Source: Anaerolineae bacterium
GTDB taxonomy: Bacteria; Chloroflexota; Anaerolineae; S140-20
Direction of reading: 5' to 3'
Length of the DNA: 64,000 nucleotides
Assembly (NCBI GenBank): GCA_027021705.1
Contig: JALUTT010000077.1
Location: forward strand, 32,001 to 96,000
The position numbers and the translations under genes are program-made. The notes under the pieces were generated by a model. The model worked only from the letters and a program-made list of their open reading frames with translations. It was not told the DNA's origin and ran no database searches. This document shows positions 2,009 through 17,233 of the stretch, piece after piece (the stretch's first letter is position 1; the number at the start of each line of letters is the position of its first letter).

Positions 2009-2082
2009 GGCCCGCTAGCTCAATTTGGCAGAGCAGGGGACTCTTAATCCCTTGGTTGCAGGTTCGAGTCCTGCGCGGGTCA
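2009..2082 (+). tRNA. tRNA-Lys (anticodon CTT)
   Basis: Cloverleaf: GGCCCGC/GCGGGTC acceptor stem, TAGCTCAATTTGGCAGAGC D arm, CTCTTAA anticodon loop, GGTTCGAGTCC T arm. CCA is not fully encoded. Confidence 0.95.
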
Positions 2083-2085
2083 CCT
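2041..2085 (+). repeat. attL core (45 bp)
   Basis: ctcttaatcccttggttgcaggttcgagtcctgcgcgggtcacct, identical to 14589-14633. Confidence 0.95.
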
Positions 2086-2117
2086 GTAAACGCACCCTAA
2101 CCCGAAAGGGGGTGCCT

Positions 2118-2366
2118 ATGCCCAGACGGGTAGCTACCCTGGTGGACTGGGCTTTTGCCCCTGACTGGCTCACCGTCGAGAAGGCCGCCGAACTAACCGG
2201 CTACACCGAGGACTTCATCCGCTGGCTGATCCAGGATGGGGGCGTAGAAGTGAAGCAACAAGGCGATACGTGGCTCATCGAGAAGGCCAGTCTGCGTGAG
2301 TACCGGGACGCACTGCTGGAAACGCTCCAGTTGCAGCGTGACCTGGGGCTTGAGTCCGATGACTGA
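2118..2366 (+). CDS. Excisionase-like HTH (HTH_17/MerR-type) DNA-binding protein 1
   Basis: WLTVEKAAELTGYTEDFIRWLIQDG..WLIEKASL; the ORF-track start at 2025 lies inside the tRNA, so ATG 2118 is preferred. Confidence 0.75.
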   Translation: MPRRVATLVDWAFAPDWLTVEKAAELTGYTEDFIRWLIQDGGVEVKQQGDTWLIEKASLREYRDALLETLQLQRDLGLESDD

Positions 2367-2389
2367 GCCGGTGTAGCGCTGCACCCCAG

Positions 2390-2420
2390 GCCCCACCATC
2401 GGCAGGTGGGGCTTTGCTTT
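2390..2420 (+). terminator. Terminator after HTH1
   Basis: gccccacc/ggtggggc stem followed by tttgcttt. Confidence 0.6.
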
Positions 2421-2467
2421 GTCTCGGAAAACGCTCCCCCCGGCCTTCCTGAAAGGGGGAGGACGGA

Positions 2468-2660
2468 GCGAAAAAAATTTTCCCCAGAAAAGTACCTATG
2501 GGTCCCCTGACTGGTGACACTGGTGACACTGGTGACACCGAGAAACTTAAGCGTAAATGTTTCCTTTATAAAGTGTCTTCTCCCAGGAGAAAGCCTGTCA
2601 CCAGTTGACACAAAAACTGGTGACAGGACTGGTGACACCGGTGACAAAACCGGTGACAAG
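2468..2660 (+). repeat. Iteron-rich long inverted repeat, left copy (putative ori/recombination locus)
   Basis: Multiple (ct)ggtgaca repeats plus AT-rich segments; near-identical in reverse complement to 13173-13350. Confidence 0.9.
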
Positions 2661-2706
2661 ACCGGGAGGAGAGCCATCACCGGCCTTCACCCTTTGTACC
2701 CTGGAA

Positions 2707-2742
2707 AAGCCTTCAAAGTCTTCAAAGCCTTCAAAGCCTTCA
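2707..2742 (+). repeat. 4 x 9-bp tandem repeat aagccttca
   Basis: aagccttca aagtcttca aagccttca aagccttca directly upstream of HTH2. Confidence 0.9.
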
Positions 2743-2758
2743 CCGGCCGTTGGCTGCA

Positions 2759-2992
2759 ATGGGCAAAGACTTCGACCCGACCGAATGGATCACCACCAAA
2801 GAGGCTGCCGAGTTGACGGGGTACCACGTTGTCCATATCCGTCGGCTTGCGAAAGCTGGCCGTATCAGGGGGATAAAGCGTGGACGCGATTGGTGGGTAG
2901 AGCGCGAGAGTGTACAGGCTTACGTTGAGGAGATGGAGCGGTTGGGCTCCGCCAAGCATGATCCTCGGCGGGTAGGCGTCCGTCAGAGATGA
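2759..2992 (+). CDS. Excisionase-like HTH protein 2
   Basis: WITTKEAAELTGYHVVHIRRLAKAGRIRGIKRGRDWWV; alternative start at 2750. Confidence 0.8.
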   Translation: MGKDFDPTEWITTKEAAELTGYHVVHIRRLAKAGRIRGIKRGRDWWVERESVQAYVEEMERLGSAKHDPRRVGVRQR

Positions 2993-2993
2993 G

Positions 2994-3022
2994 TTGACAC
3001 CCTCTTTTTTTTGTGGTATACT
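2994..3022 (+). promoter_or_regulatory. sigma70 promoter of the element's main operon (T8 tract in spacer)
   Basis: TTGACA-17 bp-TATACT with extended TG. Confidence 0.8.
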
Positions 3023-3108
3023 GTGTTCGCACGGGAACGGTCCTATCCCGTTTCTTTTTCCGGCTAAGTTAGTTCTCCAGAGAACACACACCAGCGAGGG
3101 AAATAGCG

Positions 3109-3330
3109 ATGTACTTGGGATACTGGGCAGAAGAGGTTTACCCCCGCCCGCTGGAGGACGATGGGCTTTGTGGGGAATGCGGCCGGCGACCGGCATCCTG
3201 GGGTGATTGGTTGTGCCCTCGGTGCCGCCGGCGGCTGGAGGAATCCCTGGCCCCGGATGCCGACGATACCGTCCAGAATGCCCCTGAGAGGCCCCAGGAG
3301 GCCCCAGGAGCGGCTTTTTCGGCAGAATAG
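3109..3330 (+). CDS. Small zinc-finger-like hypothetical protein
   Basis: CGEC...CPRC; GAGG-type RBS upstream; in operon order. Confidence 0.55.
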   Translation: MYLGYWAEEVYPRPLEDDGLCGECGRRPASWGDWLCPRCRRRLEESLAPDADDTVQNAPERPQEAPGAAFSAE

Positions 3331-3341
3331 GAGGGAGAACC

Positions 3342-3593
3342 TTGAGCGAAGTCCTTGAGGGGTGGATTACGGCAGCCGAGGCCGCAGCCTTGACCGGTTA
3401 TACTGTCCCTCATATCCGTCGCCTGGCCCGCCAGGGCCGGATTGAGGCCCAGAAGGTGGGCCGAGACTGGCTGATCGGCCGGGAGAGCCTGCTGGCCTAC
3501 AAGCGGCAGATGGAGGCCCTGGGCTCCCAGAAACACAACCCCTGGCGGGAGGACCTGGGGCGGCAAGGACGACGGAGGAAGGCCGATGACTAA
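3342..3593 (+). CDS. Excisionase-like HTH protein 3
   Basis: WITAAEAAALTGYTVPHIRRLARQGRIEAQKVGRDWLI, clearly paralogous to HTH2; strong RBS. Confidence 0.8.
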   Translation: MSEVLEGWITAAEAAALTGYTVPHIRRLARQGRIEAQKVGRDWLIGRESLLAYKRQMEALGSQKHNPWREDLGRQGRRRKADD

Positions 3594-3984
3594 CTGGCAA
3601 CATCCCAGGAAGAAACTGATCTCGGCCGCTGCCGATGCTTATCAGCGGGGCTGGGGAAGCATCGGGGAGTTGGCCGAGAGCGCGGTCCGACGGCACTATA
3701 TGGGCAAGTCACCGGACCGTGCCCTCCGGCTTTTCGTCCGAGACCTGTACCGCGAGGTGGTCCGTCGAGGAGACCCAGAATTTCGGCAGATGGTTGAGAC
3801 CCTCCACGCCGAAGGTTGGGAGTATCTCCCGATGGACGGTGTGGGGATGCGAGGAATCTTTTTCCATCGCCCCACCGGTAACCAAGTGAACCGGATGGGT
3901 GGCCCCTTCGATTCGTTTGAGGAGGCCGTCAAGGCAACCTACTACAGCGCGACCAGAGAACTCTTGCAAGAGGGGAACCGATGA
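3586..3984 (+). CDS. Hypothetical protein
   Basis: Overlaps the stop and start of its neighbours (translational coupling). Confidence 0.6.
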   Translation: MTNWQHPRKKLISAAADAYQRGWGSIGELAESAVRRHYMGKSPDRALRLFVRDLYREVVRRGDPEFRQMVETLHAEGWEYLPMDGVGMRGIFFHRPTGNQVNRMGGPFDSFEEAVKATYYSATRELLQEGNR

Positions 3985-4250
3985 CCGATACCCAGATCAT
4001 CCGGCTCACCACCCCGCTCCCCTGTGGGGTGATGCGTGAGGGAAACCGATGTGGACGACCGGCCTATGTGGCTTCCGCTACGCCGGTGGCTATGTCCGAG
4101 GACCCGGAACCGGACAACGTTGTGGCCGATCTGGTGGCCCGGATGTACCGGGGGCACTGGCTCATCCTGCCGGTGTGTGTGCAGTGTGTGCGTGACCTGT
4201 CCGAACGCTACCAATTGGAGGTGTCCGATGAAGAAAGCGCGACGACTTGA
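3981..4250 (+). CDS. Hypothetical Cys-containing protein
   Basis: ATGA overlap with upstream gene; C..C and CVQC motifs. Confidence 0.55.
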   Translation: MTDTQIIRLTTPLPCGVMREGNRCGRPAYVASATPVAMSEDPEPDNVVADLVARMYRGHWLILPVCVQCVRDLSERYQLEVSDEESATT

Positions 4251-4962
4251 GATCATCCCGCTGGTCCTGTGGCTGACCCTGGCCCTGGCAATGGTCGGCT
4301 CCCTGACGCACACCGCCTGGGCCTTCGCCACCCTGGAGGACGGGAACCTGACCGCCGGCTACATCCAGGCGGTGGCGGTGGACCTGGGCCTCTTCGCCCT
4401 GGCGTTCAGCATCCAGAAGCGCCGGCGGCAACGTCGCCCGACCTGGACCCTCTGGGCCGGAGTTGGGCTGTTCAGCGGAATCTCCGCCTACGCCAACCTG
4501 TTGCACGGGCTGGCGTTCCAGGGCCGCTTGCCCCTGTCAGGGTGGACGTGGCTGGCCTCCCTGCGCCCGTTCATCCTGTCGGGCGTCCTCCCCCTGCTGG
4601 TGCTCTACCTCTCCGAGATCATCTCCTCCGACGTTCAGCACGCCGTCCAGCAGGCCGAGCGGGAGCGAAAGCGGGCCGAACGGCTGGCCGCCCGCCGGCC
4701 GTCAACTTCAGAGCAACCCAACGCCTTCCCCTACGACATCGAACAGGCCAGAACCCAAGCCCTGGAACGCCGGCGCCTTAGCAAGGACCAGGCTCTGGAA
4801 CGCCTCCTTGACTTCCTGGCCGACCACCCGGACGCAAGCCTCTCCGAAGCCGGGCGGCACATCGGACGAAGCAAGACCACCGTCTCCAACTACCTGAACG
4901 AACTGGAGGAGAGCGGGCGCATCCGGCGGAACGGCCAGGGAATCGAGGTGCTGGCGAGGTGA
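4228..4962 (+). CDS. Multi-TM protein with C-terminal winged HTH (SpdA/DUF2637-like spread protein)
   Basis: About four TM segments, then a coiled region and HPDASLSEAGRHIGRSKTTVSNYLNELE HTH; directly upstream of FtsK. Confidence 0.65.
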   Translation: MKKARRLEIIPLVLWLTLALAMVGSLTHTAWAFATLEDGNLTAGYIQAVAVDLGLFALAFSIQKRRRQRRPTWTLWAGVGLFSGISAYANLLHGLAFQGRLPLSGWTWLASLRPFILSGVLPLLVLYLSEIISSDVQHAVQQAERERKRAERLAARRPSTSEQPNAFPYDIEQARTQALERRRLSKDQALERLLDFLADHPDASLSEAGRHIGRSKTTVSNYLNELEESGRIRRNGQGIEVLAR

Positions 4963-5127
4963 ACGGAGGTCCGGGGGCAGGTGTGCAAACGGGCGTTGGC
5001 CCACCTGCCGGGGAAAGGAAACCGCCGGCAGGTCTTGGACCCACCGGCGGAAGGGAGATGCCCGCGCGAGAACGCGGACACCCCAAGTATACAGGAAACG
5101 GTGCGAGTTGACAAGGGGAGGTGCCCA

Positions 5128-6717
5128 ATGAGGCGAGAACGAGGACTAGCCGTCACCGTCTTGCTCATCGCTGCGTTGGCCGTCTTCAGCGGATGGCAGC
5201 TTGCAGGGGGCATCCGCGACATCATCACCCGCGACGAACTCCGGGAGGCCGCCCGGCTGGAGAACGAACACCGCGCCCGGATGGAACCCTGGCGACGGGC
5301 GGGGAAGATAGCCGCAGGCGTCATCGGCCTGCTCACCCTGGCCGGTCTGGGGAGTGCCCTCATCGTCTACGCCCACCGACGGGCCGGGGAGATTCGGCCC
5401 GGCCCTGACGGCCAGTTTCCCATCATCCGGGTCCGAGTGGGCGGCGCTACGGTCCTACACGACCCCAACCGGCAGTTGGCCCCCACCGTCGTCTACACCA
5501 CCCCCCGACTGGCCCAGAACGTGGTGGTGATGCCGGTACTTCCCCCCGGCCTGGAGACCGAGCAGGTGGCCACCACCGCCCGCGCCCAGGCCGTCCAACT
5601 GGCCTCGGCGGTCAACAAACATCGGCCGGTGCTGACCGATGGTGGCGCACCGACGCACCCCCAACCCCTGGAGGACCGCCGGCAGGCCCTGGAGGACGCC
5701 CTGGCCCCCCTCTGGCCTACCCGGGTGCCCCTCACCGGCCTACTCAACGGGAGCCCCGTCAGCCTGGAGCGGCTGGTGTTGGGGGTGACCGTCCGCGAGG
5801 ACGGGCGGACAGAGGTTGTCCGGGGCGGGATGAGCAAGCTGGTCCACGTCGCCGTCGGCGGGAGCTCGGGTTGGGGCAAGTCCAACTTCCTCCGCGCCCT
5901 GGCCTACCAACTGGTCCTGGCCCAAGAGCGGCCCGACCTGGTGATGATTGACCTGGAGGGGGCAACCCTGGCCCCTTTCAGCCGGTCGGACCGGCTGCTC
6001 TACCCCCTGGCCGACACCGAGGACGACGCCCTGGCCGTGCTCCAGGCCGTCAACGAGGAACTGGACCGGCGCAAGGCCCTCTTCGGCCGGTATCCCGGCA
6101 CCGACAGCCTGGCGGCCTACAATGCCAGGGCCGAGGAGCCCCTGGCCCCCGTGATCACGGTCACCGATGAGGCGACGGCCTTGCTGGGCGACAAGCGGGT
6201 CGAGAAAGCGCTGAAGACCCTGGCCTTGAGGGGGCGCAAGTACGGCCTCTGGCTGGTCTTGGCGGGGCAGGACTGGAAGGCCAGCAGCCTCGATACCGCC
6301 ATCAGGAACCAGCTTGCGACGCGCGTCCAGTTTAAGGCCCTCAGCTCTTCCCAGAGCCGGGTGCTCTTGGGGCAGCCGGGGGCCGAGAAGCTGGAGGATG
6401 TGCCGGGGCGGGCCTTGGCCGTGCTGCCGGGCCGTGGCCTGGTCAAAATCCAGGCCCCCCACATCAGCCCGGCCGAGATTGAGCGGGCGCTGGCCGGTCA
6501 CGACACCGGAGCACGGCGGAACGTGCCGCGACCTGAGATGGACACCCGAGCCGAGACCATCCGGCAACTGGCGGCCCAGGGGTTGAGCCTGCGCGAGATT
6601 CAACGTCGGGTGTTCGGCTACGTGGGGGGAGCCGCTTACGATGAGGTCAAGCGGGTTCTGGAGGGCGGTACTGAAGGCGATACAGGCGGTATTACTGTAC
6701 CGTCTGGGGCCGTCTAG
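5128..6717 (+). CDS. FtsK/SpoIIIE-family DNA translocase (TraB-like)
   Basis: Two N-terminal TM segments; HVAVGGSSGWGKS Walker A, MIDLEG, VTDEA Walker B, GRKYG..LAGQ, PGRA; C-terminal HTH-like end. Confidence 0.88.
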   Translation: MRRERGLAVTVLLIAALAVFSGWQLAGGIRDIITRDELREAARLENEHRARMEPWRRAGKIAAGVIGLLTLAGLGSALIVYAHRRAGEIRPGPDGQFPIIRVRVGGATVLHDPNRQLAPTVVYTTPRLAQNVVVMPVLPPGLETEQVATTARAQAVQLASAVNKHRPVLTDGGAPTHPQPLEDRRQALEDALAPLWPTRVPLTGLLNGSPVSLERLVLGVTVREDGRTEVVRGGMSKLVHVAVGGSSGWGKSNFLRALAYQLVLAQERPDLVMIDLEGATLAPFSRSDRLLYPLADTEDDALAVLQAVNEELDRRKALFGRYPGTDSLAAYNARAEEPLAPVITVTDEATALLGDKRVEKALKTLALRGRKYGLWLVLAGQDWKASSLDTAIRNQLATRVQFKALSSSQSRVLLGQPGAEKLEDVPGRALAVLPGRGLVKIQAPHISPAEIERALAGHDTGARRNVPRPEMDTRAETIRQLAAQGLSLREIQRRVFGYVGGAAYDEVKRVLEGGTEGDTGGITVPSGAV

Positions 6718-6801
6718 GGCGATACCCGGTACCGGTAATACCGCCGGTACTGTAATACCGCTTGTCCGGGGAGCGGATACACCGGATTCTGGACGGTGGC
6801 A

Positions 6802-6870
6802 ACGGTGACAAGTGACGGTGACAAGTGACGGTGACAAGTGACGGTGACCGGTGACACCTGTCACCGTCAC
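6802..6870 (+). repeat. 3.6 x 13-bp tandem repeat acggtgacaagtg plus ggtgaca/tgtcacc palindrome
   Basis: Read directly; same GGTGACA core as the two long inverted repeats. Confidence 0.9.
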
Positions 6871-6943
6871 CCGGCAGCTTATCAACCGCCTATGCGTCAA
6901 CTGCCTATGTGTTAACCACCGTCACCTGCGGAGGGAGGGGAAG

Positions 6944-7417
6944 ATGCTAAGCGAGGCGGACCTGGAACGATTCTTCCGGCGGATGTGGGAGGAGCAGCGT
7001 CGGGGGCGATACCTTCTCCCGGAGGACCCCAGGCGCACCCTCGCCCGCCGGGTTGAGCGGGCAGTCATCCAGAAGCTCATCGGGCGGGGGCACCGGGTGA
7101 GCAAGGCTGCCCCCAACGAGCACTGGGACCTCTGGGCCGACGGGATCAGGATTGAGGTCAAGGCGGCCACCTGGCACGGACGCTACCAGGCGAATCTGAG
7201 GGGGAACGACGCCGACGTGCTCATCCTCGGCTGCGTCAACGGGGATGTCCACTTCTTCGTCATCCCCTTCGACCGGCTGGAGGGCCGACGCCACGTTGCC
7301 ATCTGGTCGCCCGACCCGGCCCGCTACCTGGGCCGCTGGGCGCCCTTCTACGAAGCCTGGGAGTGGCTGGACGCCCTGGAGGTCCGCAATCCCTGGCAAC
7401 TCCCGCTGTTCCCCTAG
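6944..7417 (+). CDS. Putative PD-(D/E)xK nuclease-fold protein
   Basis: E...HWDLWADGIRIEVKAA resembles the D...ExK catalytic motif; RBS GGAGG. Confidence 0.55.
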   Translation: MLSEADLERFFRRMWEEQRRGRYLLPEDPRRTLARRVERAVIQKLIGRGHRVSKAAPNEHWDLWADGIRIEVKAATWHGRYQANLRGNDADVLILGCVNGDVHFFVIPFDRLEGRRHVAIWSPDPARYLGRWAPFYEAWEWLDALEVRNPWQLPLFP

Positions 7418-7469
7418 TTTCAATCCCCCATCAGGCGGGAGAGGGTTTGCGACTTGGAGGGATGAAGCT

Positions 7470-7730
7470 ATGCTGACAGAACAGGAACGAATCTTGGAGA
7501 CCCAGGAACAAGTCTTGGAGACCTTGGACCGACTTGCCTCCTTGGTTGAGCTTGCCAAGGAGGAAGCCGAGAGATATGACCCGTTCGGCCTTCTCGAAAC
7601 TCGGCTTCGGCAGATCGAGCAGACCGTTCAGACCGTGCGCGACTTGGCCGGGGTGGGCAAGAAGAGAACCCGACTTACGATCACCATCACCGACCGGCCG
7701 TGGCTGCCGGGGCTGCCCTGGCCGCTGTGA
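7470..7730 (+). CDS. Hypothetical coiled-coil protein
   Basis: RBS GGAGG upstream; heptad-rich sequence. Confidence 0.55.
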   Translation: MLTEQERILETQEQVLETLDRLASLVELAKEEAERYDPFGLLETRLRQIEQTVQTVRDLAGVGKKRTRLTITITDRPWLPGLPWPL

Positions 7731-7742
7731 GGGAGGGGCACG

Positions 7743-8009
7743 ATGACTACCCTGATCGCAGCGTACAACTCTGAGGGCTGCATTGGCCGTTGTGACGCCA
7801 AGTGCTACAACGCCACCGGCCCCGACTGCGAATGTATCTGCGGCGGCCTTAACCACGGCGCAGGGGTGGAAAAGGCGATGGAGAACACCCGCGAGCTGGC
7901 CGAGGAGTGGATGCGGCAGTGGCGCACGGAGCACCCGGACACGGAATACTTCCTGGTCCCGGCGGCGCAACTGTCCTTGTGGGGCCTTCTGGAGGAAGGG
8001 CGATGTTGA
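7743..8009 (+). CDS. Cys-rich putative zinc-binding protein
   Basis: CDAKCYNATGPDCECICGGLNHG; strong RBS. Confidence 0.65.
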   Translation: MTTLIAAYNSEGCIGRCDAKCYNATGPDCECICGGLNHGAGVEKAMENTRELAEEWMRQWRTEHPDTEYFLVPAAQLSLWGLLEEGRC

Positions 8010-8197
8010 GGCTTCTGATGATCGCGCTGGTGCTGGTGTTGTCGGCCTTCGTGCCCGGTACGACGGTGGTTGAGGGAACGATGAAGGGGACGGCCACCCT
8101 CGGCCTCGCCCGCCTGACCATCGGGCGGGCGACGGTCCGCGTCACCCTGCACCCCTACCGGCCCAACCGGGTGTACTACCGTCTGGCGGTGACGTAG
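8003..8197 (+). CDS. Small secreted/membrane hypothetical protein
   Basis: Hydrophobic N-terminus MLRLLMIALVLVLSAF; coupled to neighbours. Confidence 0.5.
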   Translation: MLRLLMIALVLVLSAFVPGTTVVEGTMKGTATLGLARLTIGRATVRVTLHPYRPNRVYYRLAVT

Positions 8198-8599
8198 ATG
8201 GACGACCGGGATCGGCTCTGGGCAGCCTGGAGAGAGGAACAGGCAAGGCGCTGGCGGGCCTTCGCCGATTCCCTGACGCCGGATCAGCGAGAACTGCTCC
8301 GACGCTATGAGGAAGCCTGTCGGCAGGTGGCCCGGTTGCGCCGGATGGAATCGGCCCGGAGGCGCGGGCGGCCTTACCGGGGGCAGCCGGTGCCCCGGCC
8401 TTGGACCGAAGTCGGGGGCATCGTCCGGTGGCACGACACCCGGTGGCGCGTCGCCCGGCGCTACCGGATGAGCGAGGTGGGCAGGCTGGAAGCCGAGGAC
8501 CGTTGGCTGGTGGACCTGGAGCCGTTGGAAGAGGGATGGGACCCCTACGTGGGGGTCCCCGAGTCTGAAATCGAGGAATGGAACGATGAAAGTAAGTGA
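8198..8599 (+). CDS. Hypothetical protein
   Basis: Starts immediately after the upstream stop codon. Confidence 0.55.
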   Translation: MDDRDRLWAAWREEQARRWRAFADSLTPDQRELLRRYEEACRQVARLRRMESARRRGRPYRGQPVPRPWTEVGGIVRWHDTRWRVARRYRMSEVGRLEAEDRWLVDLEPLEEGWDPYVGVPESEIEEWNDESK

Positions 8600-8780
8600 C
8601 GATCTGGTGTTAGAAGCGTGGCGAGGAGAGCAGCCGTACTTTCTACTGCGCAGCCTGGGGCGGGAGGAAGGCGGACAGGGGGTGATCATCCTGCCCGACG
8701 AAATCCCCGCCCTGATTGAGGCGCTGACCGAGGTGGTGAACGATGAGCAACGACCTGGCGGTGACCCACAACGCGGCTGA
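8586..8780 (+). CDS. Hypothetical protein
   Basis: Short ORF bridging two overlapping genes. Confidence 0.45.
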   Translation: MKVSDDLVLEAWRGEQPYFLLRSLGREEGGQGVIILPDEIPALIEALTEVVNDEQRPGGDPQRG

Positions 8781-9702
8781 GTTGCTGAGGCGAGAGGACC
8801 TGCTGGCAGCGTTCGCGGCGTTCCTCCGGCTCAACGTCGCCGAGGGTGACGCAAGCGCGGCCACGGTGCGGACCTACTGGAGCCAGGTACGCCAGTACGT
8901 GGCCTGGTGCCGGGAGCGGGGGCTGGACCCGGCCCTGGCCTCGGAGCACGACCTGCTGGAGTACCGCGCCTGGCTGGCCGAACGCTACACGCGGGCGACG
9001 GTGGCCACCAAACTCGCGGCGGTGCGCCGGCTCTACCAGGCCGCCGTCTGGCGGGGGATGAGGGCCGACAACCCCGCTGCCGGCCTGAAGGCCCCGAAGG
9101 AAAAGACGGCCAGGGAGGAGCGGGTGAAGTTTCTGCCGCTGGAGGGGCTCAAGCGGCTCCTCCAGGCCCCCCAGGGCGACGGGGCCAAGGGCCGGCGGGA
9201 TAGGGCGATGCTGGCCCTGATGGGCGTCCACGGCTTGCGTGTAAGCGAGGTGGCCGGGCTGGATGTGGACGACCTCGACCTCGACCAAGGTCGGGTCACG
9301 GTCACCGGCAAGGGCCGGAAGACGCGCACCGTCTACCTGACGGAGCAGACCGCGCAGGCCCTGGCCGCTTGGCTGGAGGCGCGGGATCGGGTGGCCGCCG
9401 AGGATGAGCCGGCCCTGTTCGTCAGCCTTCGCCATCCTGACCCGGGCACCCGGATGAGCGCGAGGTCAATCCGCTACCTGGTGGACGGCTACCTGGAGCG
9501 GCTGGGGCTCAAGGGGGAAGGGATAAGCTGCCACAGCCTGCGGCATAGTGCCGCGACCTGGGCGCGGGCCGGGGGCGCGGCCCTGGACGCCATTGCCGGG
9601 ATGCTGGGGCATTCGTCGGTGACGACGACGCAGGTCTACGCCCGGATCGTGGACCGGATGACCGAGAACCCGGCCCGCTACCTGGAGGCCCTGCTGGGAT
9701 AG
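8743..9702 (+). CDS. Tyrosine recombinase (XerC/D-like, internal)
   Basis: SAM-like N-domain; GLRVSE, GKGRK, HSLRH, LGH and TQVY give a complete catalytic set. Confidence 0.92.
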   Translation: MSNDLAVTHNAAELLRREDLLAAFAAFLRLNVAEGDASAATVRTYWSQVRQYVAWCRERGLDPALASEHDLLEYRAWLAERYTRATVATKLAAVRRLYQAAVWRGMRADNPAAGLKAPKEKTAREERVKFLPLEGLKRLLQAPQGDGAKGRRDRAMLALMGVHGLRVSEVAGLDVDDLDLDQGRVTVTGKGRKTRTVYLTEQTAQALAAWLEARDRVAAEDEPALFVSLRHPDPGTRMSARSIRYLVDGYLERLGLKGEGISCHSLRHSAATWARAGGAALDAIAGMLGHSSVTTTQVYARIVDRMTENPARYLEALLG

Positions 9703-9859
9703 GGGAGGGAGGCTTGCTCTCGCCCTCTCTCCCCTTCCCAGGGAAAGGGCCGGTGCTTCCTGTTATTGGGATTATCGGAAGCAACGCTGACAGTCGTATA
9801 CTGTATAATCCGCATTTTGTCAAGGGCACTTGTGTTTGAACTGCCTACAGCAGTCGTTC

Positions 9860-9888
9860 TTGACACCTACAGGGAGGAGTGTTATAAT
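9860..9888 (+). promoter_or_regulatory. Consensus sigma70 promoter of the replication operon
   Basis: TTGACA(9860-65)-17 bp-TATAAT(9883-88) with extended TG. Confidence 0.88.
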
Positions 9889-9965
9889 CCTGCGTGTATA
9901 ACACAATGAGAGGGGACACTGGAGGAGGATGTGCCCACAGTGTCCCCTTTTGCTAGGAGGACACA

Positions 9966-10133
9966 ATGCGCAAACACTTCGTGGGGTTCCGCCTTGAGCC
10001 GCACCTGTATCACGCTTTGAAAACACAGGCGCGGCAGCGTGGCAACACCGTCTCTGAGGAGATTCGGCTGGCGATTCGGGAATACCTGAAGAAAAGGAGT
10101 AAAAAAACAAGGAGTAAACGATGGCTATCGTAA
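9966..10133 (+). CDS. Ribbon-helix-helix (CopG/Arc-like) repressor, 55 aa, not in ORF track
   Basis: MRKHFVGFRLEPHLYHALKTQARQRGNTVSEEIRLAIREYL; AGGAGG RBS; overlaps the primase start. Confidence 0.75.
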   Translation: MRKHFVGFRLEPHLYHALKTQARQRGNTVSEEIRLAIREYLKKRSKKTRSKRWLS

Positions 10134-13100
10134 CCCGTAGGAACGAAAGAAGGCCCGCTACAGCGGGGGATGCTGGCGGGCCGGGCGGGAATAACCACCG
10201 AGTTGTTTCTGCCCCACATTATACCCCAAATTCCCCCAACGGTCAAGTACCGCGCGAGGTCCTTGACGCAATCAAGGACCGCGTGGACTTCCCCCGCCTG
10301 TTCGAGGAGGTCTTCGGGATCACCTTGCCCCGTTCCCCCAACGGACGGGGGTCGGTGAAGGTCCGCTGCCCCCGGCCCAATCACCTCGACCGGGACCCGA
10401 GCTGTACCGTCTACCACAACCGCGTCCACTGCTTCGGCTGTAACTGGCACGCCGATGTCATTAACCTGGTGAGGGAGCGGTACGGGGTGGGATTCCGGGA
10501 AGCCGTGCGTATCCTGGCGGCTCAGGTCGGGTATCCGCTCTCCTCCCTCACCCCTGAGCAGGTCCAAGCGATGCAGACACAGCGGGAATACGAGGACGGC
10601 TTGATCCGGGCGGCAGCGTTCTTCCACCAACACCTGCTGGAATCGGAGGCCGGGATGGAGTACGCCCGGAGCCGCTGGTCCGAGGAGGCGATCCGGGCGG
10701 AGTGGATCGGCTTTGCCGACGGCTCCCCTCTACCCGACCTGGGCAACGAACAGGCTCGGCAGGTGGCGGAGGCCGTCAACCGCTGGGCGGCCCGGGTCGG
10801 CGGGGCCGTTGTCTACGCCCACCGACGGGGCGGGCGCGTTGTCTACCTCTCGGCCCGGTCCATCCGGGAGAAAAAACACTACAACCCCCCCGGCCGCTTC
10901 GCCGGTCCGAAACAGCCCTACGTCAACTCCGTCTATTCCTCCCGGTCCGACGAGGTGATCATCGTCGAAGGGCAGGCGTGCGCCATCACGCTGGCCGGGT
11001 GGGGCTTTCCTGCCGTCGCCCTGGCGGGAAGCAGTCCGTCCGAGGACCTGGCCCGGCTGCTACGGGGGGAGCGGGATGTCTACGTCATCCCCGACGCCGA
11101 CGGAAGAACCGATGTCCAGGGCTTGGTGGAGGCCCTGGGGCCACAGATCATCGTGGTCACCCTGCCGGACGGGGTTGCCGACGTGAACGACTGGGCACGG
11201 AAGGACGGGACGGCGGAGGCGCTGAGGGACCGCCTGAACGAGGCCCCGGAGTGGCTGGAGCAGCAGATCACAGAGATCGCCGAGATGCCGAAGGGCCGCC
11301 GGCGGGATAGGGAGATGGAGAGGGTGTTCCGGTGGCTGAAACCCCTTCCCCCCCTCGACTGGGAACGCTACGGGGCGTTGGTGTGCGAGGACCTAAAACT
11401 CCTCTCACGACGGACGTTCAACAGGATGCTCAAGCAGACGGAGGCCGTCGAGATCGAGGGCAACCGCTACCTGGTCCGAGAGGGGAGGCTGTGCATCGAG
11501 CACCGGAAGGACGGGGGACGCTACGTTGAGCCTCTGTGCAACTTCGCGGCCAGGGTGACGACCGACATCACCTATGACGACGGGCAAGAAACCGTCCGCC
11601 GTTTCATCGTAGAGGGCCAACTGGAGGACGGGACCGCCCTTCCCCCCGCCCTAGTGGACGCGGGCAAATTCCCGGACATGAAGTGGATCACCGAGGCGTG
11701 GGGATCGAGGGCCATCGTTGCCGCCGGACACGGGAAGCGAGACCAACTACGGGAAGCGATCCAGCGGCTTAGCGGTGAGGTGGTCACCAAACGGGTGTAC
11801 ACACACCTCGGCTGGCGACAGATTGACGGGAAGCGGTGCTACCTGCACGCGGGCGGGGCGCTGGGACACGACGGCGTGGAAGTGGAACCGGCAAAGGAAC
11901 TGACCCGCTACCGGCTGCCCAACGAGCCTGACGACGTGCGCGGTGCGATGGAGGCCAGCCTACGGCTTCTGGAGATGGCCCCTCTCCGGCTCACCGTCCC
12001 CCTCTGGGCGTCGGTCTGGTTGGCCCCCGTGTCGGAGATCGTCCACCCGGACTTCGTGCTCTGGCTCTACGGTCGGACGGGGACCTTCAAGAGCAGTATG
12101 GCGGCCCTCTTCCTCTCCCACTACGGCGGGCCGTTCACGGCCAAGGACTTGCCGGGGTGGTGGTCCACGGCCAACGCGCTGGAGAAGCTATGCTATCTCA
12201 CCAAGGACGCACTGCTGGTCATTGACGACTTCGCCCCGAAGAGCAACCCCCGTGAGGCCAGGGAGCAGAGGGCGACGGTGAACCGGATCATCCGTGCCGT
12301 CGGCAATCGGGCCGGCCGGCAACGGCTCAACCGCAACCTGCGCCTGCGGAAGTCCTACCCCCCTCGCGGTCTGGTCATCTCAACGGGGGAGATGATCCCC
12401 GGCTTGCAGTCCGTTGTAGCCAGGCTGTACGTTGTCGAGGTGGGGCAAGGAGACGTGGACCGGGAGCGACTGAGCGCGGCCCAGGCGGAAGCCGAACGAT
12501 ACCCCCACGCGCTGGCCGGATACGTGCTCTGGCTCTCGGAGCAGTGGGACGAACTCAGGCAATCGCTTCCCCGGCAACTGAGGGAGATCCGCGATAGACT
12601 GGTGTCGGAGGTAGGGGGAGAACATATGCGCCTCCCCAATGCACTGGCTATGTTGTACCTGGGATTTGACCTGGGGTTGCAGTACGCAGTTGAGGTTGGG
12701 GCTCTGAGTGAGGAAGAGGCAAACGGGTGGCGCAATGCCGGATGGACTGCCCTTACCGCGTCGGCAGAAGCCCATAGCCGCCAGGTGGCAGCCGAGAGCC
12801 CCACCGGCCTCTACTTTGAGGCCCTGGAGGAGTTGCTGGCCCAGAGGAAGGTGAGGCTTAAGTCTGTACAGGGCGGTTCCATCGTGGGATCGGAAGAGGG
12901 GGAACACATCGGATGGTACGACGATGACCACATCTACCTGCTTCCCCGGGTCGCATACAAAGCGGTCAACGACCTTCTCCGGGGCACGGGGCGAGACTTT
13001 CCCCTCGACGAGCGAGCGCTGCGCAAGTACCTGGCGGAAGAGGGGTATTTGGAACGGCAGGGTGAGCGGTACACCGTCCTAAAGCGGACACCGGCGGGGC

Positions 13101-13168
13101 GCCGGCACGTGTTGAAAATACGCCGGGAGCGGGTGACACTGCTCCCGGAGGAGGGTTCTCCAGGGTAA
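10121..13168 (+). CDS. Fused DNA primase-helicase (CHC2 Zn finger, Toprim, DUF927/SF3-like helicase)
   Basis: CPRPNH..HCFGC; IIVEGQ..PDAD Toprim; GRTGTFKS Walker A and LLVIDD Walker B. Confidence 0.88.
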   Translation: MAIVTRRNERRPATAGDAGGPGGNNHRVVSAPHYTPNSPNGQVPREVLDAIKDRVDFPRLFEEVFGITLPRSPNGRGSVKVRCPRPNHLDRDPSCTVYHNRVHCFGCNWHADVINLVRERYGVGFREAVRILAAQVGYPLSSLTPEQVQAMQTQREYEDGLIRAAAFFHQHLLESEAGMEYARSRWSEEAIRAEWIGFADGSPLPDLGNEQARQVAEAVNRWAARVGGAVVYAHRRGGRVVYLSARSIREKKHYNPPGRFAGPKQPYVNSVYSSRSDEVIIVEGQACAITLAGWGFPAVALAGSSPSEDLARLLRGERDVYVIPDADGRTDVQGLVEALGPQIIVVTLPDGVADVNDWARKDGTAEALRDRLNEAPEWLEQQITEIAEMPKGRRRDREMERVFRWLKPLPPLDWERYGALVCEDLKLLSRRTFNRMLKQTEAVEIEGNRYLVREGRLCIEHRKDGGRYVEPLCNFAARVTTDITYDDGQETVRRFIVEGQLEDGTALPPALVDAGKFPDMKWITEAWGSRAIVAAGHGKRDQLREAIQRLSGEVVTKRVYTHLGWRQIDGKRCYLHAGGALGHDGVEVEPAKELTRYRLPNEPDDVRGAMEASLRLLEMAPLRLTVPLWASVWLAPVSEIVHPDFVLWLYGRTGTFKSSMAALFLSHYGGPFTAKDLPGWWSTANALEKLCYLTKDALLVIDDFAPKSNPREAREQRATVNRIIRAVGNRAGRQRLNRNLRLRKSYPPRGLVISTGEMIPGLQSVVARLYVVEVGQGDVDRERLSAAQAEAERYPHALAGYVLWLSEQWDELRQSLPRQLREIRDRLVSEVGGEHMRLPNALAMLYLGFDLGLQYAVEVGALSEEEANGWRNAGWTALTASAEAHSRQVAAESPTGLYFEALEELLAQRKVRLKSVQGGSIVGSEEGEHIGWYDDDHIYLLPRVAYKAVNDLLRGTGRDFPLDERALRKYLAEEGYLERQGERYTVLKRTPAGRRHVLKIRRERVTLLPEEGSPG

Positions 13169-13172
13169 AGGC

Positions 13173-13350
13173 TGTCACCAGTGTCACCAGTTTTGTCACC
13201 AGTTTTTATGTCAACTGGTGACAGGCTTTCTCCTGGGAGAAGACACTTTATACAAGGAAACACTTACGCTTAAGTTCCTCGGTGTCACCAGTGTCACCAG
13301 TGTCACCAGTCAGAGATACAGGGTATCTTTTGGGAGAAAAATTTTTCCGC
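13173..13350 (-). repeat. Iteron-rich long inverted repeat, right copy
   Basis: tgtcaccag repeats; its reverse complement aligns with 2468-2646 with few mismatches in the core. Confidence 0.9.
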
Positions 13351-13366
13351 CTCTGGAGGGTAGACG

Positions 13367-13642
13367 ATGGGGTACCGGCTTATACTACCGTCTGTGCTCT
13401 CGGAAGTAGAGCGTCCGGCGCAAGGAGAACGGACCGAGCGCCCTTCCGCCCTTGTTCGGCCCCCCATCCCTGAGCCGGACTGGGAAGCGTTGGGCATCTG
13501 CTTTCCCCTGGACCTACGGGAGCTCCCTTGGGCGTGCGCAAGGCTGGAACAAGCCGGCTACGACGCCTGGGTTGAGGACGACGGATGGCAATTGGTCCTG
13601 CGATACCGCCTAAACACACAGACGAAGGGGGGTGAACGATGA
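13367..13642 (+). CDS. Hypothetical protein
   Basis: GGAGG RBS; ATGA overlap with the integrase. Confidence 0.55.
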   Translation: MGYRLILPSVLSEVERPAQGERTERPSALVRPPIPEPDWEALGICFPLDLRELPWACARLEQAGYDAWVEDDGWQLVLRYRLNTQTKGGER

Positions 13643-14595
13643 GACTTCTGGAGGCCGTTGATGCATTCTTGACCGCGACCAGGGCCGACGGTCGCAGCCC
13701 CAAGACGGTGGACAGCTACCGGCGGAAGCTGAAACCCCTGACGGACTTCCTGGGCGACGTGCCGGTCGAGGCGATCACCGCCGACGATCTACGGAAGTAC
13801 ATTACCGACCTGATGGATCGGCGGACCAGGTGGCGTGAGCACCCGAAGCACCGGGAACGGGAGGGTGGGCTTTCGCCCTTCACCGTCGCCGGTCACGTTC
13901 GGGCTCTCAAGCGGCTGTTCAACTGGCTGGAAGGCGAGGGGGTGATCACGAACAATCCCGCCCGCCGTATCAAGACACACCAGCCGAAACAGCGGACGTT
14001 GAAGGCGGTCTCCGTCGAGGACTTCCTGGCACTGCTGGCCACCACCCAGGGGGAAGGGGTGTCGGACCTACGGGATCGTGCTATCATCCTCTTCCTGGCC
14101 GATACGGGATGTCGAATCGGGGGGCTGTGTGGGCTGAGGCTGGACGACCTGGACCTGGAGGAAGAGGTTGCCTTCGTCACGGAGAAGGGGGGGAAGACGC
14201 GCCCGGTGCCCTTTACCACGGTGACGGCAGAGGCGTTGAGGGCCTGGCTGGCCGTGAGGCCCGACGCCGGCGAGTACGTCTTCGTCAGCCTGGGCAACAA
14301 GGCAGTCGGGCGTCTCACACCCAACGGGGTGCGGCAGATGCTGAGGCGACGGGCGAAGCAGGCCGGGATAACGCGGCCCGTCAACCCCCACGCCTTCCGG
14401 CATGCCTTTGCAAGGGAGTATCTGCTGAACGGTGGCGATCTGGCGACGCTTGCCGACCTGCTAGGGCACAGCAGCGTTGAGGTCACCCGGTTTTTCTACG
14501 CGAGGTTTCGGTACAAAGAGCTGAAGGAAAAGCACGACCGTCATAGTCCGGTAGCGCGATTAGTCGAGAAAGGAGGGCTCCGTGTCCGCTCTTAA
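13639..14595 (+). CDS. int: Tyrosine integrase adjacent to attR
   Basis: TGCRIG, EKGGK, HAFRH, LGH and FY motifs; stop codon lies inside the att repeat. Confidence 0.92.
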   Translation: MRLLEAVDAFLTATRADGRSPKTVDSYRRKLKPLTDFLGDVPVEAITADDLRKYITDLMDRRTRWREHPKHREREGGLSPFTVAGHVRALKRLFNWLEGEGVITNNPARRIKTHQPKQRTLKAVSVEDFLALLATTQGEGVSDLRDRAIILFLADTGCRIGGLCGLRLDDLDLEEEVAFVTEKGGKTRPVPFTTVTAEALRAWLAVRPDAGEYVFVSLGNKAVGRLTPNGVRQMLRRRAKQAGITRPVNPHAFRHAFAREYLLNGGDLATLADLLGHSSVEVTRFFYARFRYKELKEKHDRHSPVARLVEKGGLRVRS

Positions 14596-14633
14596 TCCCT
14601 TGGTTGCAGGTTCGAGTCCTGCGCGGGTCACCT
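14589..14633 (+). repeat. attR core (duplicated tRNA-Lys 3' half)
   Basis: 45-bp identity to 2041-2085. Confidence 0.95.
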
Positions 14634-14705
14634 ACCTGTTCGTAGCCCTCTTGGCTATCCCAACTGAAAGATGAGCCCTCGATGAGGGCGCACGTCAGTG
14701 CGCCC

Positions 14706-14900
14706 TCATGTGTTCCATCTCCACGCGACCAACCGCAACACCTGGACCTCCTGATCCGTCAGCCCGGCGGCTTCCACAGGGGGCTGCCTTTCTCCCCGGG
14801 CCCAAGCCACCACCTTCCTCTTCACAGCCTGGCTGTACCACGTTTCCCCTCGAGTTACTGCTTGCACCGCTGCCACTATCACCTCCGACCCTTTCTCCGC
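14706..14900 (-). pseudogene. NarL/LuxR-type response regulator fragment
   Basis: EVIVAAVQAVTRGETWYSQAV...GLTDQEVQVLRLVA then a stop; lacks the N-terminal REC region and the rest of the HTH. Confidence 0.7.
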
Positions 14901-14952
14901 GTGAGCCGTCAAGGGAAGCGATCGGCCGGCCGTCGCGGGGTCTGGTGCACCC

Positions 14953-15768
14953 TCACACCTCTTCGGCGAAGCGGGGGCTGTAGTGGTGGAAAATGAGGTA
15001 GCCAATGAGGAGGGTGAGGAAGGCGGTCACGGCGGTGCGGAGGAAGAAGTCCAGGCCGGGCCGAGCCCCCCAGTAGAGGATGTCCCGATAGGAGGCAATG
15101 ATGGAAGCCATCGGGTTGAGCCGCCGCAGCCAGACCCGCAGGGGGACGGCCACGCCTAGGATGACCCGCTGCTCCGGCACCTGGTTGATGGGGTAGAAGA
15201 CCGGGGTCAGGAAGAACCAGGCCAGTAGGACCACCCCCAGAATGAGGTGGGTGTCCCGGTAGAAGACGTTCAGCGTGGACAGGATGAAGGCCATCCCGAT
15301 GGTGAAGGCGACCTGCACCAGGATCACCAAGGGGAGCAGCAGGGCCCACAGTGTGGGGGGGCGGCCCATCAAGGTGGCGAGCACGAAGTAGACGGGGAGG
15401 GCGATGAGGAAGTTGACCAGGTTGGAGAGGACGAGGGCGATGGGCAACACCTCGCGGGGGAAATAGACTTTCTTGATCAAATGGGCGTTGCCCACAATCG
15501 TGGCGGTCGCGCCGGCAACGGAATCCTGGAAGAAGTTCCAGGGGAGCAGGGCGCAGAGGATGAAGGCGGGGAAGGCCGGATAGGCGCTCTGACCGGCCAG
15601 GTACTTGAAGACGATGGTGAAGACCACCATCATCAGCAGCGGGTTGAGGAGCGACCACCCTACCCCTAGGATGGAGTTTTTGTAGCGGACCTTCAAGTCC
15701 CGCACGACCAGGTTGTAGATGAGCTCCTGGTAGCGCCACAGCTCGTAGAGCCTACCCAGCAAGCTCAT
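14953..15768 (-). CDS. ABC-2 polysaccharide export permease (Wzm-like)
   Basis: RDLKVRYKNSILGVGW, LIKKVYFPRE, LTPVFYP and LNPM motifs. Confidence 0.9.
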   Translation of the reverse strand: MSLLGRLYELWRYQELIYNLVVRDLKVRYKNSILGVGWSLLNPLLMMVVFTIVFKYLAGQSAYPAFPAFILCALLPWNFFQDSVAGATATIVGNAHLIKKVYFPREVLPIALVLSNLVNFLIALPVYFVLATLMGRPPTLWALLLPLVILVQVAFTIGMAFILSTLNVFYRDTHLILGVVLLAWFFLTPVFYPINQVPEQRVILGVAVPLRVWLRRLNPMASIIASYRDILYWGARPGLDFFLRTAVTAFLTLLIGYLIFHHYSPRFAEEV

Positions 15769-17015: not shown

Positions 17016-17084
17016 CGCTTGGCTCCTGGTCTGTGGTTTGACCGTTCTGGCTCTCCAGACCTCCGAGGTCTGGAAGAAAATATC

Positions 17085-17200
17085 ATTCAGCCTACCCTCC
17101 CGCAGGTCACCGGTCGAGGACACTTTCAGCCCCGATGGGCTATTTGAAGCACGGTTTCGCGTCGGAAACGTGCCTAACCTGCGGGAGGGTGAACAGTTAC
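17085..17200 (+). repeat. Repeat family A copy (~115 bp, structured)
   Basis: attcagcctaccctcccgcaggtcac...cctaacctgcgggagggtgaacag. Confidence 0.9.
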
Positions 17201-17233
17201 GGAAGAGAAATCCAAGGCGCGGGAGGATCCGGC

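Follow-up and report, generated by a model that had tools for sequence, protein, structure and literature searches.

What kind of mobile element lies in a lysine tRNA gene of a Chloroflexota bacterium with an FtsK-type DNA pump and no recognizable virion genes, and by what route might it spread? The question is raised by a 64,000-nucleotide stretch of an Anaerolineae genome (contig JALUTT010000077.1), referred to below as the window, in which an element is integrated at tRNA-Lys(CTT) (2009..2084, plus strand, found with ARAGORN). The element is bordered by two perfect copies of a 45-nt direct repeat, the attL core at 2041..2085 and the attR core at 14589..14633, whose spacing of 12,548 gives an element length of 12,548 bp. 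The repeat starts as the final 44 bases of the tRNA gene plus one, and the 3′ part of the tRNA is restored by the element end. Codon-position GC content placed 19 genes between the att copies, all on the plus strand, to which every gene coordinate below refers. The sequence comparisons described here indicate that the element is an integrative replicon resembling the AICEs (integrative and conjugative elements of actinomycetes), and that it is an intact member of a recurrent, apparently undescribed family.

Searches with Pfam, PHROGs and NCBIfam were performed on 22 candidate open reading frames (ORFs), namely the 19 element proteins and three more. Zero matches to capsid, portal, tail, relaxase, VirB4 or VirD4 families were obtained. 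The hallmarks of tailed prophages (large terminase, portal, major capsid and tail genes) were not found among the element proteins, and neither Pfam nor NCBIfam detected the type IV secretion set of integrative and conjugative or integrative and mobilizable elements (relaxase, VirD4-type coupling protein and VirB4). The sole structural-type match was a weak one, a large-terminase PHROG on the P-loop region of FtsK (6.1e-08 vs 2.3e-40 for the FtsK-like PHROG), and the longest ORF without a family assignment comprised 157 amino acids (aa). These results confirmed the contents that an earlier note on this DNA had reported: perfect att repeats; an integrase and a second Xer-like recombinase, both matching PF00589; a primase-helicase, with its CHC2 zinc finger, DnaG-type core and DUF927 domain all detected; and an FtsK protein (PF01580) beside a winged helix-turn-helix (wHTH) protein (HTH_IclR), with hydrophobic segments in both. 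The absence of structural phage genes, relaxase and VirB4/VirD4 noted there was likewise borne out, the scans being empty apart from the terminase match on FtsK. We have little doubt that the element is a capsid-less, plasmid-like integrative replicon of Chloroflexota.

The putative pump is encoded at 5128..6717 and is an N-anchored FtsK/SpoIIIE-family translocase of 529 aa with two hydrophobic segments (PF01580, 8.3e-12, 45.5 bits vs a cut-off of 24 bits; phrog_1358, 2.3e-40). The Walker A/B columns G248, G250, K251, S252, D347 and E348 were invariant in 29 sequences. An AlphaFold2 model from the 29-sequence alignment (predicted local distance difference test score, pLDDT, 80.9) consisted of a transmembrane (TM) hairpin (residues 2–87), a motor (200–455, pLDDT above 90) and a C-terminal three-helix HTH domain (470–511) in which a wing was not resolved. 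The best solved matches were FtsK motors, 2iuu/2ius by profile (E 1e-23) and 6t8b/2ius by Foldseek (E 1e-19, root-mean-square deviation 2.5–3 Å), followed by EssC and TcpA, with HerA far lower; no title of a virion-packaging ATPase occurred among the Foldseek matches listed (ranks to 50). PRD1/PM2-type, sphaerolipovirus, pleolipovirus and inovirus readings were excluded, the ATPase being a 529-aa N-anchored FtsK with FtsK motors as its best matches. By the general size and layout of PRD1/PM2-type, pleolipovirus and inovirus proteins, all ORFs were too small for a double-jelly-roll capsid or spike protein, and a 64-aa TM protein lacked the layout of an inovirus coat protein.

Against phage and plasmid collections, the FtsK protein reached just 24–33% identity across the motor. 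Homologues numbered 243 at E ≤ 0.001, and among the 120 listed every source that named an organism was Anaerolineae or Chloroflexi. A tree of 35 motor domains was constructed, from which six rows were omitted, five because they were partial or near-duplicates and one because it had no match. The 28 proteins of Chloroflexota mobile elements formed a single clade (support 100/99), outside which lay the host's own FtsK (C145, grouping with the reference FtsK), two actinomycete plasmid FtsK proteins, mycobacteriophage Phoebus gp199, TcpA and a second FtsK-like gene product of the same genome. The tree and the solved-structure matches therefore identify the pump as a true member of the FtsK/SpoIIIE family and yet no kin of the tested actinomycete plasmid proteins, which were just two in number and did not include curated AICE Tra. 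The earlier note had set kinship with TraB or TcpA against kinship with packaging ATPases; none of the latter of virion type appeared by title among the structural matches listed, and the protein also stands apart from TcpA and from the two actinomycete plasmid FtsK. Judged from this tree, what is new here is a Chloroflexota-only FtsK clade that occurs in small capsid-less elements and tailed prophages alike. This type of FtsK is patchy: at E ≤ 1e-40, 6 of the class's 401 genomes have it, the window's own among them.

To place the element among its relatives, loci were fetched from genome (10), viral (8) and metagenome (57) sources; 32 of at least 8 kb were kept, and 28 were left once three near-duplicates and a locus whose ftsK ORF was cut had been removed. 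All 10 loci from species-representative genomes belonged to metagenome-assembled genomes of Chloroflexota or Anaerolineae. Together with the organism names among the 120 homologues listed, this agrees with the earlier assignment of the host to a Chloroflexota-like bacterium rather than an actinomycete. The FtsK protein had an N-terminal TM segment in 23 of the 28 loci, and in 11 a polytopic membrane protein, drawn from at least five families, was encoded immediately 5′ of ftsK. Tyrosine recombinases were present in 13 loci and serine recombinases in 6. Phage and small-element contexts interleaved on the motor tree. Among the small elements, L031 was a capsid-less stretch of about 11.5 kb between host genes, encoding a helicase, a methylase, an HTH_17 protein, a nuclease, a DUF2637-wHTH membrane protein, FtsK and a serine recombinase; L044 was a capsid-less 12.6-kb contig with Int, a ParM-like protein, a 4-TM protein, FtsK, Prim-Pol/D5 and a serine recombinase.

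Three further capsid-less loci, L046, L066 and L063, kept the gene order of the window at 52–64% protein identity. In each of them the integrase gene (64% identical) was followed by a 3′ tRNA-Met-like fragment and then by hth1, and a whole tRNA was absent; this order therefore points to the attP junction of a circle. In addition, L063 and L046 closed a map of about 14.46 kb vs a 14,585-bp contig. Because of the attP junction and the closing map, the element family is considered, from sequence, to exist as free circles. Syntenic elements, which the earlier note had proposed to look for, are thus represented by these three loci, sharing the window's order in a circular attP form. A literature search found no description of such AICE-like FtsK elements in Chloroflexota/Chloroflexi (subscription journals lay outside the search). 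The suggestion of an undescribed class was accordingly upheld as to a recurrent family without a description found, but an AICE-like variant describes the element better than a new class.

Other settings of FtsK-like genes were observed in passing. A second mobile element in the same genome (L035, G000:C124:4000-23999, at about 5400–17700) encodes a Replic_Relax protein (PF13814), ParB, an IstB/DnaA-like ATPase, a single-stranded DNA-binding protein and a Phd/ParE pair, and its FtsK-like gene is split in two, with a membrane ORF of 243 aa and a motor ORF of 424 aa. At L020:13987-16680, in a Chloroflexota phage contig with the FtsK clade, the portal gene is split by an intein with a LAGLIDADG domain. 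At L043:572-2122, an FtsK-clade locus encodes an IstB-like ATPase and a transposase of the Mu type (rve with the C-terminal domain of Mu transposase), suggesting that the pump also travels with transposable elements.

An inverted repeat with 21-nt arms (90%; I16) straddles the ftsK stop codon at 6682..6765 and is a candidate loading site for the pump. This is a family-wide feature: the repeat straddles or touches the stop codon, with arms of 10–19 nt whose starts lie 35–75 nt apart. A repeat with a score of at least 10 was found in 20 of 29 loci vs 9 of 385 random control windows from the same loci, and a score of at least 13 in 15 of 29 vs 2 of 385. The arms were built of tandem CTA, ACA or GTGAC units. 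The last HTH helix of FtsK read Y-x-G-G in all 12 loci of the CTA class, Y-G-N-[PT]-[FH]-Y-I in all three of the ACA class and Y-[RK]-N-[AS]-[RK] in all four of the GTGAC class, these counts coming from related loci and not from independent ones. The classes were scattered over the motor tree. Arm 1 often lay in the coding tail, giving poly-Thr or poly-Gln tails, and the constraint therefore appears to act on the nucleic acid and not on the protein. In the window, a CTA-class HTH goes with a degenerate CTA-like palindrome, and a GTGAC array starts 76 nt beyond. The agreement of classes is suggestive of a C-terminal HTH that reads the stop-codon palindrome; it is no proof of recognition because the loci are kin and the two features are closely linked.

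The replication gene, priHel (10121..13168), encodes a primase-helicase of 1015 aa with a CHC2 zinc finger (4.9e-09), a DnaG-type primase core and a DUF927 helicase domain (2.6e-06). The DnaG model covers residues 44–202, and residues 80–389 match Aquifex DnaG 2au3 (1.5e-06). In the window there are 27 copies of the heptamer GGTGACA, vs 8.1 expected and a largest count of 15 in shuffled sequences, and 21 of them fall in three clusters within the element. Cluster 3 (13173..13313), a probable origin 5 nt past the priHel stop codon, has two 9-nt iteron sets around a spacer. Cluster 1 (2507..2658; inverted repeats I1/I2, 92–97%) consists of CTGGTGACA units plus a palindrome and is an inverted copy of cluster 3. 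Cluster 2 (6793..6888; I4) is a GTGAC/GGTGACA array of a 13-nt unit repeated 3.6 times, followed by inverted copies. An iteron array directly 3′ of the replication gene was also found, with other iteron sequences, in L004, L021, L031, L044, L063, L067, L068 and L082 by a windowed 7-mer count; a crude 8-mer count had given no iteron clusters in the relatives. Because the array follows the replication gene in the window and in these eight relatives, the GGTGACA iterons are most simply read as the putative PriHel origin. The earlier note had called the iterons P4-like: they are indeed present by a fused primase-helicase, but they are better read as an origin adjoining the replication gene, as in the relatives.

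With regard to the repeats themselves, the block at 13173-13313 is doubled as a 140-nt inverted copy at 2507-2646 (92–97% complementary), and in the circular form both inverted iteron blocks border the int-attP-hth1 segment. The array at 6793-6888 contains the heptamer of the origin iterons and looks like the palindromes found at the FtsK end in L020, L031, L032 and L054; the window FtsK belongs to the CTA HTH class despite this array. Contigs from two other runs (X2/X3) skip the array, which may represent a third PriHel site or what is left of a module swap. A clt-like role for the array was our first idea and was abandoned, since comparison across the family favours the stop-codon palindrome and the X2/X3 contigs lack the array. 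Also withdrawn was co-divergence of the PriHel C-terminus and the iterons, which had been drawn from the lack of at least 85% cover over 11341-13041 in X2/X3; missing cover is no evidence.

The gene for the membrane partner lies 5′ of ftsK at 4228..4962 and encodes a polytopic protein with at least three hydrophobic segments and a C-terminal wHTH domain (HTH_IclR, 3.2e-07). It had 53 homologues, and its pairing with ftsK was repeated in L018, L023 and L068. The positional partner in L031 matches DUF2637 (3e-22), which prompted the idea that the window protein has the same identity; this was rejected, since 0 of 35 members of the window family match and the alignment between the two partners was confined to their wHTH domains (hhalign, 96.6%). 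In plasmids, all tblastn matches to DUF2637 were in Actinomycetota (47 records), and no FtsK gene stood beside them in the three regions inspected. Downstream of ftsK, the gene at 6944..7417 encodes a 157-aa PD-(D/E)XK nuclease, assigned from residue conservation and predicted structure: D62, E71 and K73 are conserved across 69 sequences, the model has a pLDDT of 93.9, and the best PDB matches are I-Ssp6803I first and Hjc resolvases next. A homologue with 46% identity is encoded in L031. A small single-TM protein of 64 aa (8003..8197; hydrophobic segment) has homologues directly 3′ of ftsK in L046 and L063.

The tyrosine integrase gene (13639..14595; PF00589, 2e-33) has its stop codon inside attR, and homologues with 60–64% identity were found in L046/L063/L066 and L054. 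A second tyrosine recombinase, of the Xer-like type, is encoded at 8743..9702 (PF00589, 1e-34; 186.7 bits vs the XerC model, under the equivalog cut-off); it was found again in L063, L004 and L044 and is a probable multimer resolvase. Three paralogous HTH_17 (PF12728) proteins are encoded near attL: hth1 (2118..2366, 1.3e-07), which is Xis/regulator-like and whose homologue (54% identical) comes after attP in L046/L066; hth2 (2750..2992, 4e-11); and hth3 (3342..3593, 3.5e-11), of the excisionase family (TIGR01764, 43 bits, over the cut-off). Immediately 5′ of the hth2 start, AAAGCCTTC is repeated four times in tandem at 2706-2742. A promoter-like site, TTGACA-17-TATACT, lies on the plus strand 5′ of the long operon (2994..3022; consensus match only). 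A CopG-type ribbon-helix-helix (RHH) regulator (9966..10133; PF01402, 7.6e-06) overlaps the priHel start. On the plus strand 5′ of this gene pair there is a second promoter-like site, TTGACA-17-TATAAT (9860..9888; 12/12 matches), which forms a perfect extended σ70 consensus (TTGACA, 17 nt, TG, TATAAT) within a 263-nt non-coding gap.

The remaining genes encode small proteins. A Cys-rich, zinc-ribbon-like ORF (3109..3330) has a weak DZR_2 match (0.0075) and the codon-position GC of a gene. The 132-aa ORF (3586..3984) gave no match in the family scans, PADLOC included. The 89-aa ORF with four Cys (3981..4250) showed 32% identity over 81 aa to L012/L035 by tblastn; its homologue in the second element of the same genome sits 5′ of the FtsK-like gene. 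The 86-aa ORF (7470..7730), recognized by translation and by the codon-position GC of the enclosing frame 7245-7730, had no family match, and its residue pattern suggests, by eye, a coiled coil. No family match was obtained for the 88-aa Cys-rich ORF (7743..8009), the 133-aa ORF (8198..8599; the Atlas also gave none above its bar) or the 91-aa ORF 5′ of int (13367..13642). The first and last of these are supported by codon-position GC, as is the 64-aa ORF at 8586..8780.

Which known system does the element resemble? AICEs are described in Ghinet 2011 (PMC3218068) by an operational triad of integrase, replication gene and FtsK/SpoIIIE protein, as constrained to Actinomycetales, and as having replication proteins of the RepSA, RepAM or Prim-Pol type. 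The window element is similar in its integrase and att sites at a tRNA, its replication and regulation modules, its single protein with an FtsK/SpoIIIE domain, its 10–17-kb size class, its lack of relaxase and type IV secretion genes, and the small hydrophobic proteins that adjoin the pump. It differs in its Chloroflexota host, in the separate clade of its FtsK, in its second tyrosine recombinase and in a replicon made of a DnaG-type primase and DUF927 helicase, not RepSA, RepAM or Prim-Pol, although the relative L044 does have a Prim-Pol. Membrane proteins of other families hold the Spd position. The hybrid, AICE-like element for transfer of double-stranded DNA that the earlier note had proposed is thus retained for its AICE triad and its lack of capsid and relaxase genes, but not for a kinship of its FtsK with the two actinomycete plasmid FtsK tested.

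In Streptomyces, clt loci of direct and inverted repeats beside or inside the tra 3′ end are bound by two-TM, FtsK-domain Tra proteins, as Wang 2012 (PMC3583192) describes. Like Tra of pWTY27 (TraA), pSVH1 (TraB), pJV1 and pIJ101 as presented there, the window FtsK is predicted to have two N-terminal TM segments, a motor and a C-terminal DNA-reading domain, and the element has a candidate cis site of short repeats around the pump gene's 3′ end (PMC3583192). The window site differs in being a palindrome of tandem 3–7-nt units about 50 nt apart with only putative binding, and the sequence families are unrelated past the motor fold. A precedent outside the actinomycetes for an FtsK/HerA-type pump on a tRNA-integrated element is ICEth1 of Thermus thermophilus, which is 14.9 kb long between 47-nt repeats at a tRNA 3′ end and whose TdtA, modelled on HerA, is a hexameric translocase bound to the membrane by which DNA is driven from the donor; Blesa 2017 (PMC5365140) presents ICEth1 as non-replicating and without a relaxase. 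Unlike ICEth1, the window element brings a replicon of its own, and its motor is of the FtsK type and bears an HTH. In P4-like satellites and phage-inducible chromosomal islands (PICIs), which are of similar size, an integrase likewise sits at a tRNA, and iterons adjoin the gene for a fused primase-helicase. The window element has a membrane DNA pump instead, and PHROGs gave no match in it to Psu, Delta, Sid, a small terminase or functions in capsid remodelling or at cos, although its small ORFs leave room for unrecognized ones. The Streptomyces plasmid-phage pZL12, attributed to work by Zhong in 2010, reportedly has FtsK-type transfer genes within a tailed-phage genome. Similarly, the Chloroflexota prophage loci L001, L018, L020–L022 and L069 carry the pump with phage genes; pZL12 and the other TraB-bearing actinophages are actinomycete phages with Tra-family proteins, whereas the window element has no virion genes.

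From these features the following cycle is proposed. Int and an HTH_17 protein would excise a 12.5-kb circle, which PriHel would replicate from the GGTGACA iterons under the RHH regulator, and the Xer-like enzyme would resolve multimers. The membrane module would comprise the polytopic wHTH protein, the two-TM FtsK motor with its C-terminal HTH, the small TM protein and the PD-(D/E)XK nuclease. A membrane-anchored FtsK hexamer would load on the palindrome at 6682-6765 at the end of its own gene and would move the element's double-stranded DNA into an adjacent cell, in the way that Tra acts from clt in Streptomyces. We regard the chances of such pump-driven transfer from cell to cell as about even.

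Several observations weigh against it. A ParM-like or ParA gene lies near ftsK in 16 of the 28 loci, which fits a role in segregation. The FtsK clade occurs with tailed-phage structural genes in at least six of them (L001, L018, L020, L021, L022 and L069), a lower bound because many loci were scanned solely for ORFs of at least 280 aa, as cluster representatives. The nearest, sister protein of the window FtsK (68% over the motor) is that of L018, a phage-like contig of the same metagenome with a tape-measure gene. The two actinomycete plasmid FtsK group with the host FtsK and the mycobacteriophage protein, apart from the element clade (100/99); no homologues of Spd, Kor, Pra or NUDIX proteins were found in the element with Pfam, PHROGs and NCBIfam; and the membrane partner is not a DUF2637 protein. 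As for the loading site, the window arms are degenerate when compared with the CTA class, fewer than 150 nt separate the HTH from the repeat arms so that matching classes may reflect linkage and not recognition, and the repeat could act as an RNA hairpin. Finally, depth in the likely source run was 64–68 for the element contigs vs 69–79 for the flanks, i.e., about one integrated copy, and no joint across the element occurred among the 15 of 44 contigs listed, contigs breaking at the 45-nt repeat.

The same protein might serve maintenance: the palindrome-loaded pump would sort element copies, or clear them away, where the septum of a filamentous host closes, the Xer-like recombinase would resolve multimers, and any horizontal spread would take other routes. 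The partition genes just mentioned, often in the same gene row as ftsK, speak for this, as do the recurrence of the second recombinase (window, L063, L004 and L044), the chromosomal FtsK motors as best structural matches, the presence of the clade in tailed prophages, which need no conjugation, and a depth that points to a quiet single copy. Chromosome segregation, however, uses dispersed polar motifs (KOPS/SRS) unlike a single site at a pump gene, and dif-type recombinase sites are unlike a palindrome with 35–45-nt loops. The window palindrome has such loops, and a single candidate loading site beside the pump gene is the clt pattern; the host already has its own FtsK (C145), the window itself has neither ParM nor ParA, and the upstream membrane partners (11 of 28 loci) are foreign to known partition systems. 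We consider maintenance possible but rather unlikely. Less probable still is a P4- or PICI-like satellite. Its helper would be a tailed phage from the Chloroflexota family that bears FtsK; infection by this phage would set off excision and replication, the element would be packaged in helper capsids, and some small ORFs would redirect the helper. The length of 12.5 kb would suit a satellite, as would the integrase gene at a tRNA, the iteron origin adjoining the primase-helicase gene, the many small ORFs and the absence of structural genes; FtsK and its membrane partner are nearest to those of phage-like contig L018, the relatives of the nuclease fall mostly in tailed-virus clusters of the Atlas (a lead only), and the 183-contig bin to which the window belongs has one large-terminase-like gene on a short contig. 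That gene (G000:C159:4422-5039, a 630-aa frame) is the only one of its kind in the bin, on a contig of less than 6 kb. Yet small-terminase, capsid-size, head-tail and cos/pac-related families were unmatched in the 19 element proteins and three candidate ORFs, similarity to L018 in DNA or protein is limited to Int/Xer, the wHTH protein and FtsK, the 95%-complete bin gave no match to an HK97 capsid, and satellites are not known to make use of a DNA pump in the membrane and its partner proteins.

Descent from a temperate tailed phage, reduced to a chromosomal passenger when an internal deletion removed the structural half, would fit the FtsK clade and the Int, primase and HTH_17 modules, which the element has in common with tailed prophages. 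Such an origin is highly improbable: all 19 genes are intact, tightly packed and on one strand between perfect att cores, and three contigs repeat the capsid-less layout at 52–64% protein identity in circular attP form, with L031 and L044 as further cases of it. Moreover, a related strain in two runs of another study retains the element at the same site, with some stretches replaced. Hardly any weight is given to a defence island with an FtsK/HerA-like ATPase of the MADS or Ssp kind. PADLOC did return domain-level matches to mad1 (three HTH_17 proteins), to mad8 (8.7e-16) and to SspH (3.7e-17), the latter two on the FtsK motor, but these cover just the shared ATPase or HTH folds. According to the MADS model (bioRxiv 10.1101/2023.03.30.534895), MAD6, MAD7 and MAD8 are all mandatory. 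MAD6 and MAD7 were unmatched here, and a methyltransferase and an Ssp partner were not found.

If the pump does transfer DNA, the family would bear on how this mode of spread has evolved. Conjugation without a relaxase by a single FtsK-like pump has been regarded as peculiar to mycelial actinomycetes, Thermus transjugation being an unusual relative. The recurrent family described here would place the same logic in another multicellular phylum, with an unrelated FtsK clade, a different replicon, different membrane partners and a predicted loading site; if confirmed, this would point to convergent evolution of pump transfer wherever cells stay attached. It also offers three testable protein-DNA pairs, the FtsK HTH classes with their CTA, ACA and GTGAC palindromes. 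In Anaerolineae, for which genetic tools are to our knowledge lacking, the integrase, att site, origin and promoters make a candidate vector backbone. We suggest only tentatively that filamentous Chloroflexota may have evolved their own FtsK-based movement of double-stranded DNA between cells, independently of the TraB line, with a pump that would read a palindrome of tandem 3–7-nt units at the 3′ end of its gene through an exchangeable C-terminal HTH and a module common to capsid-less integrative plasmids and tailed temperate phages, both of which would spread particle-free, within a filament or from one to another.

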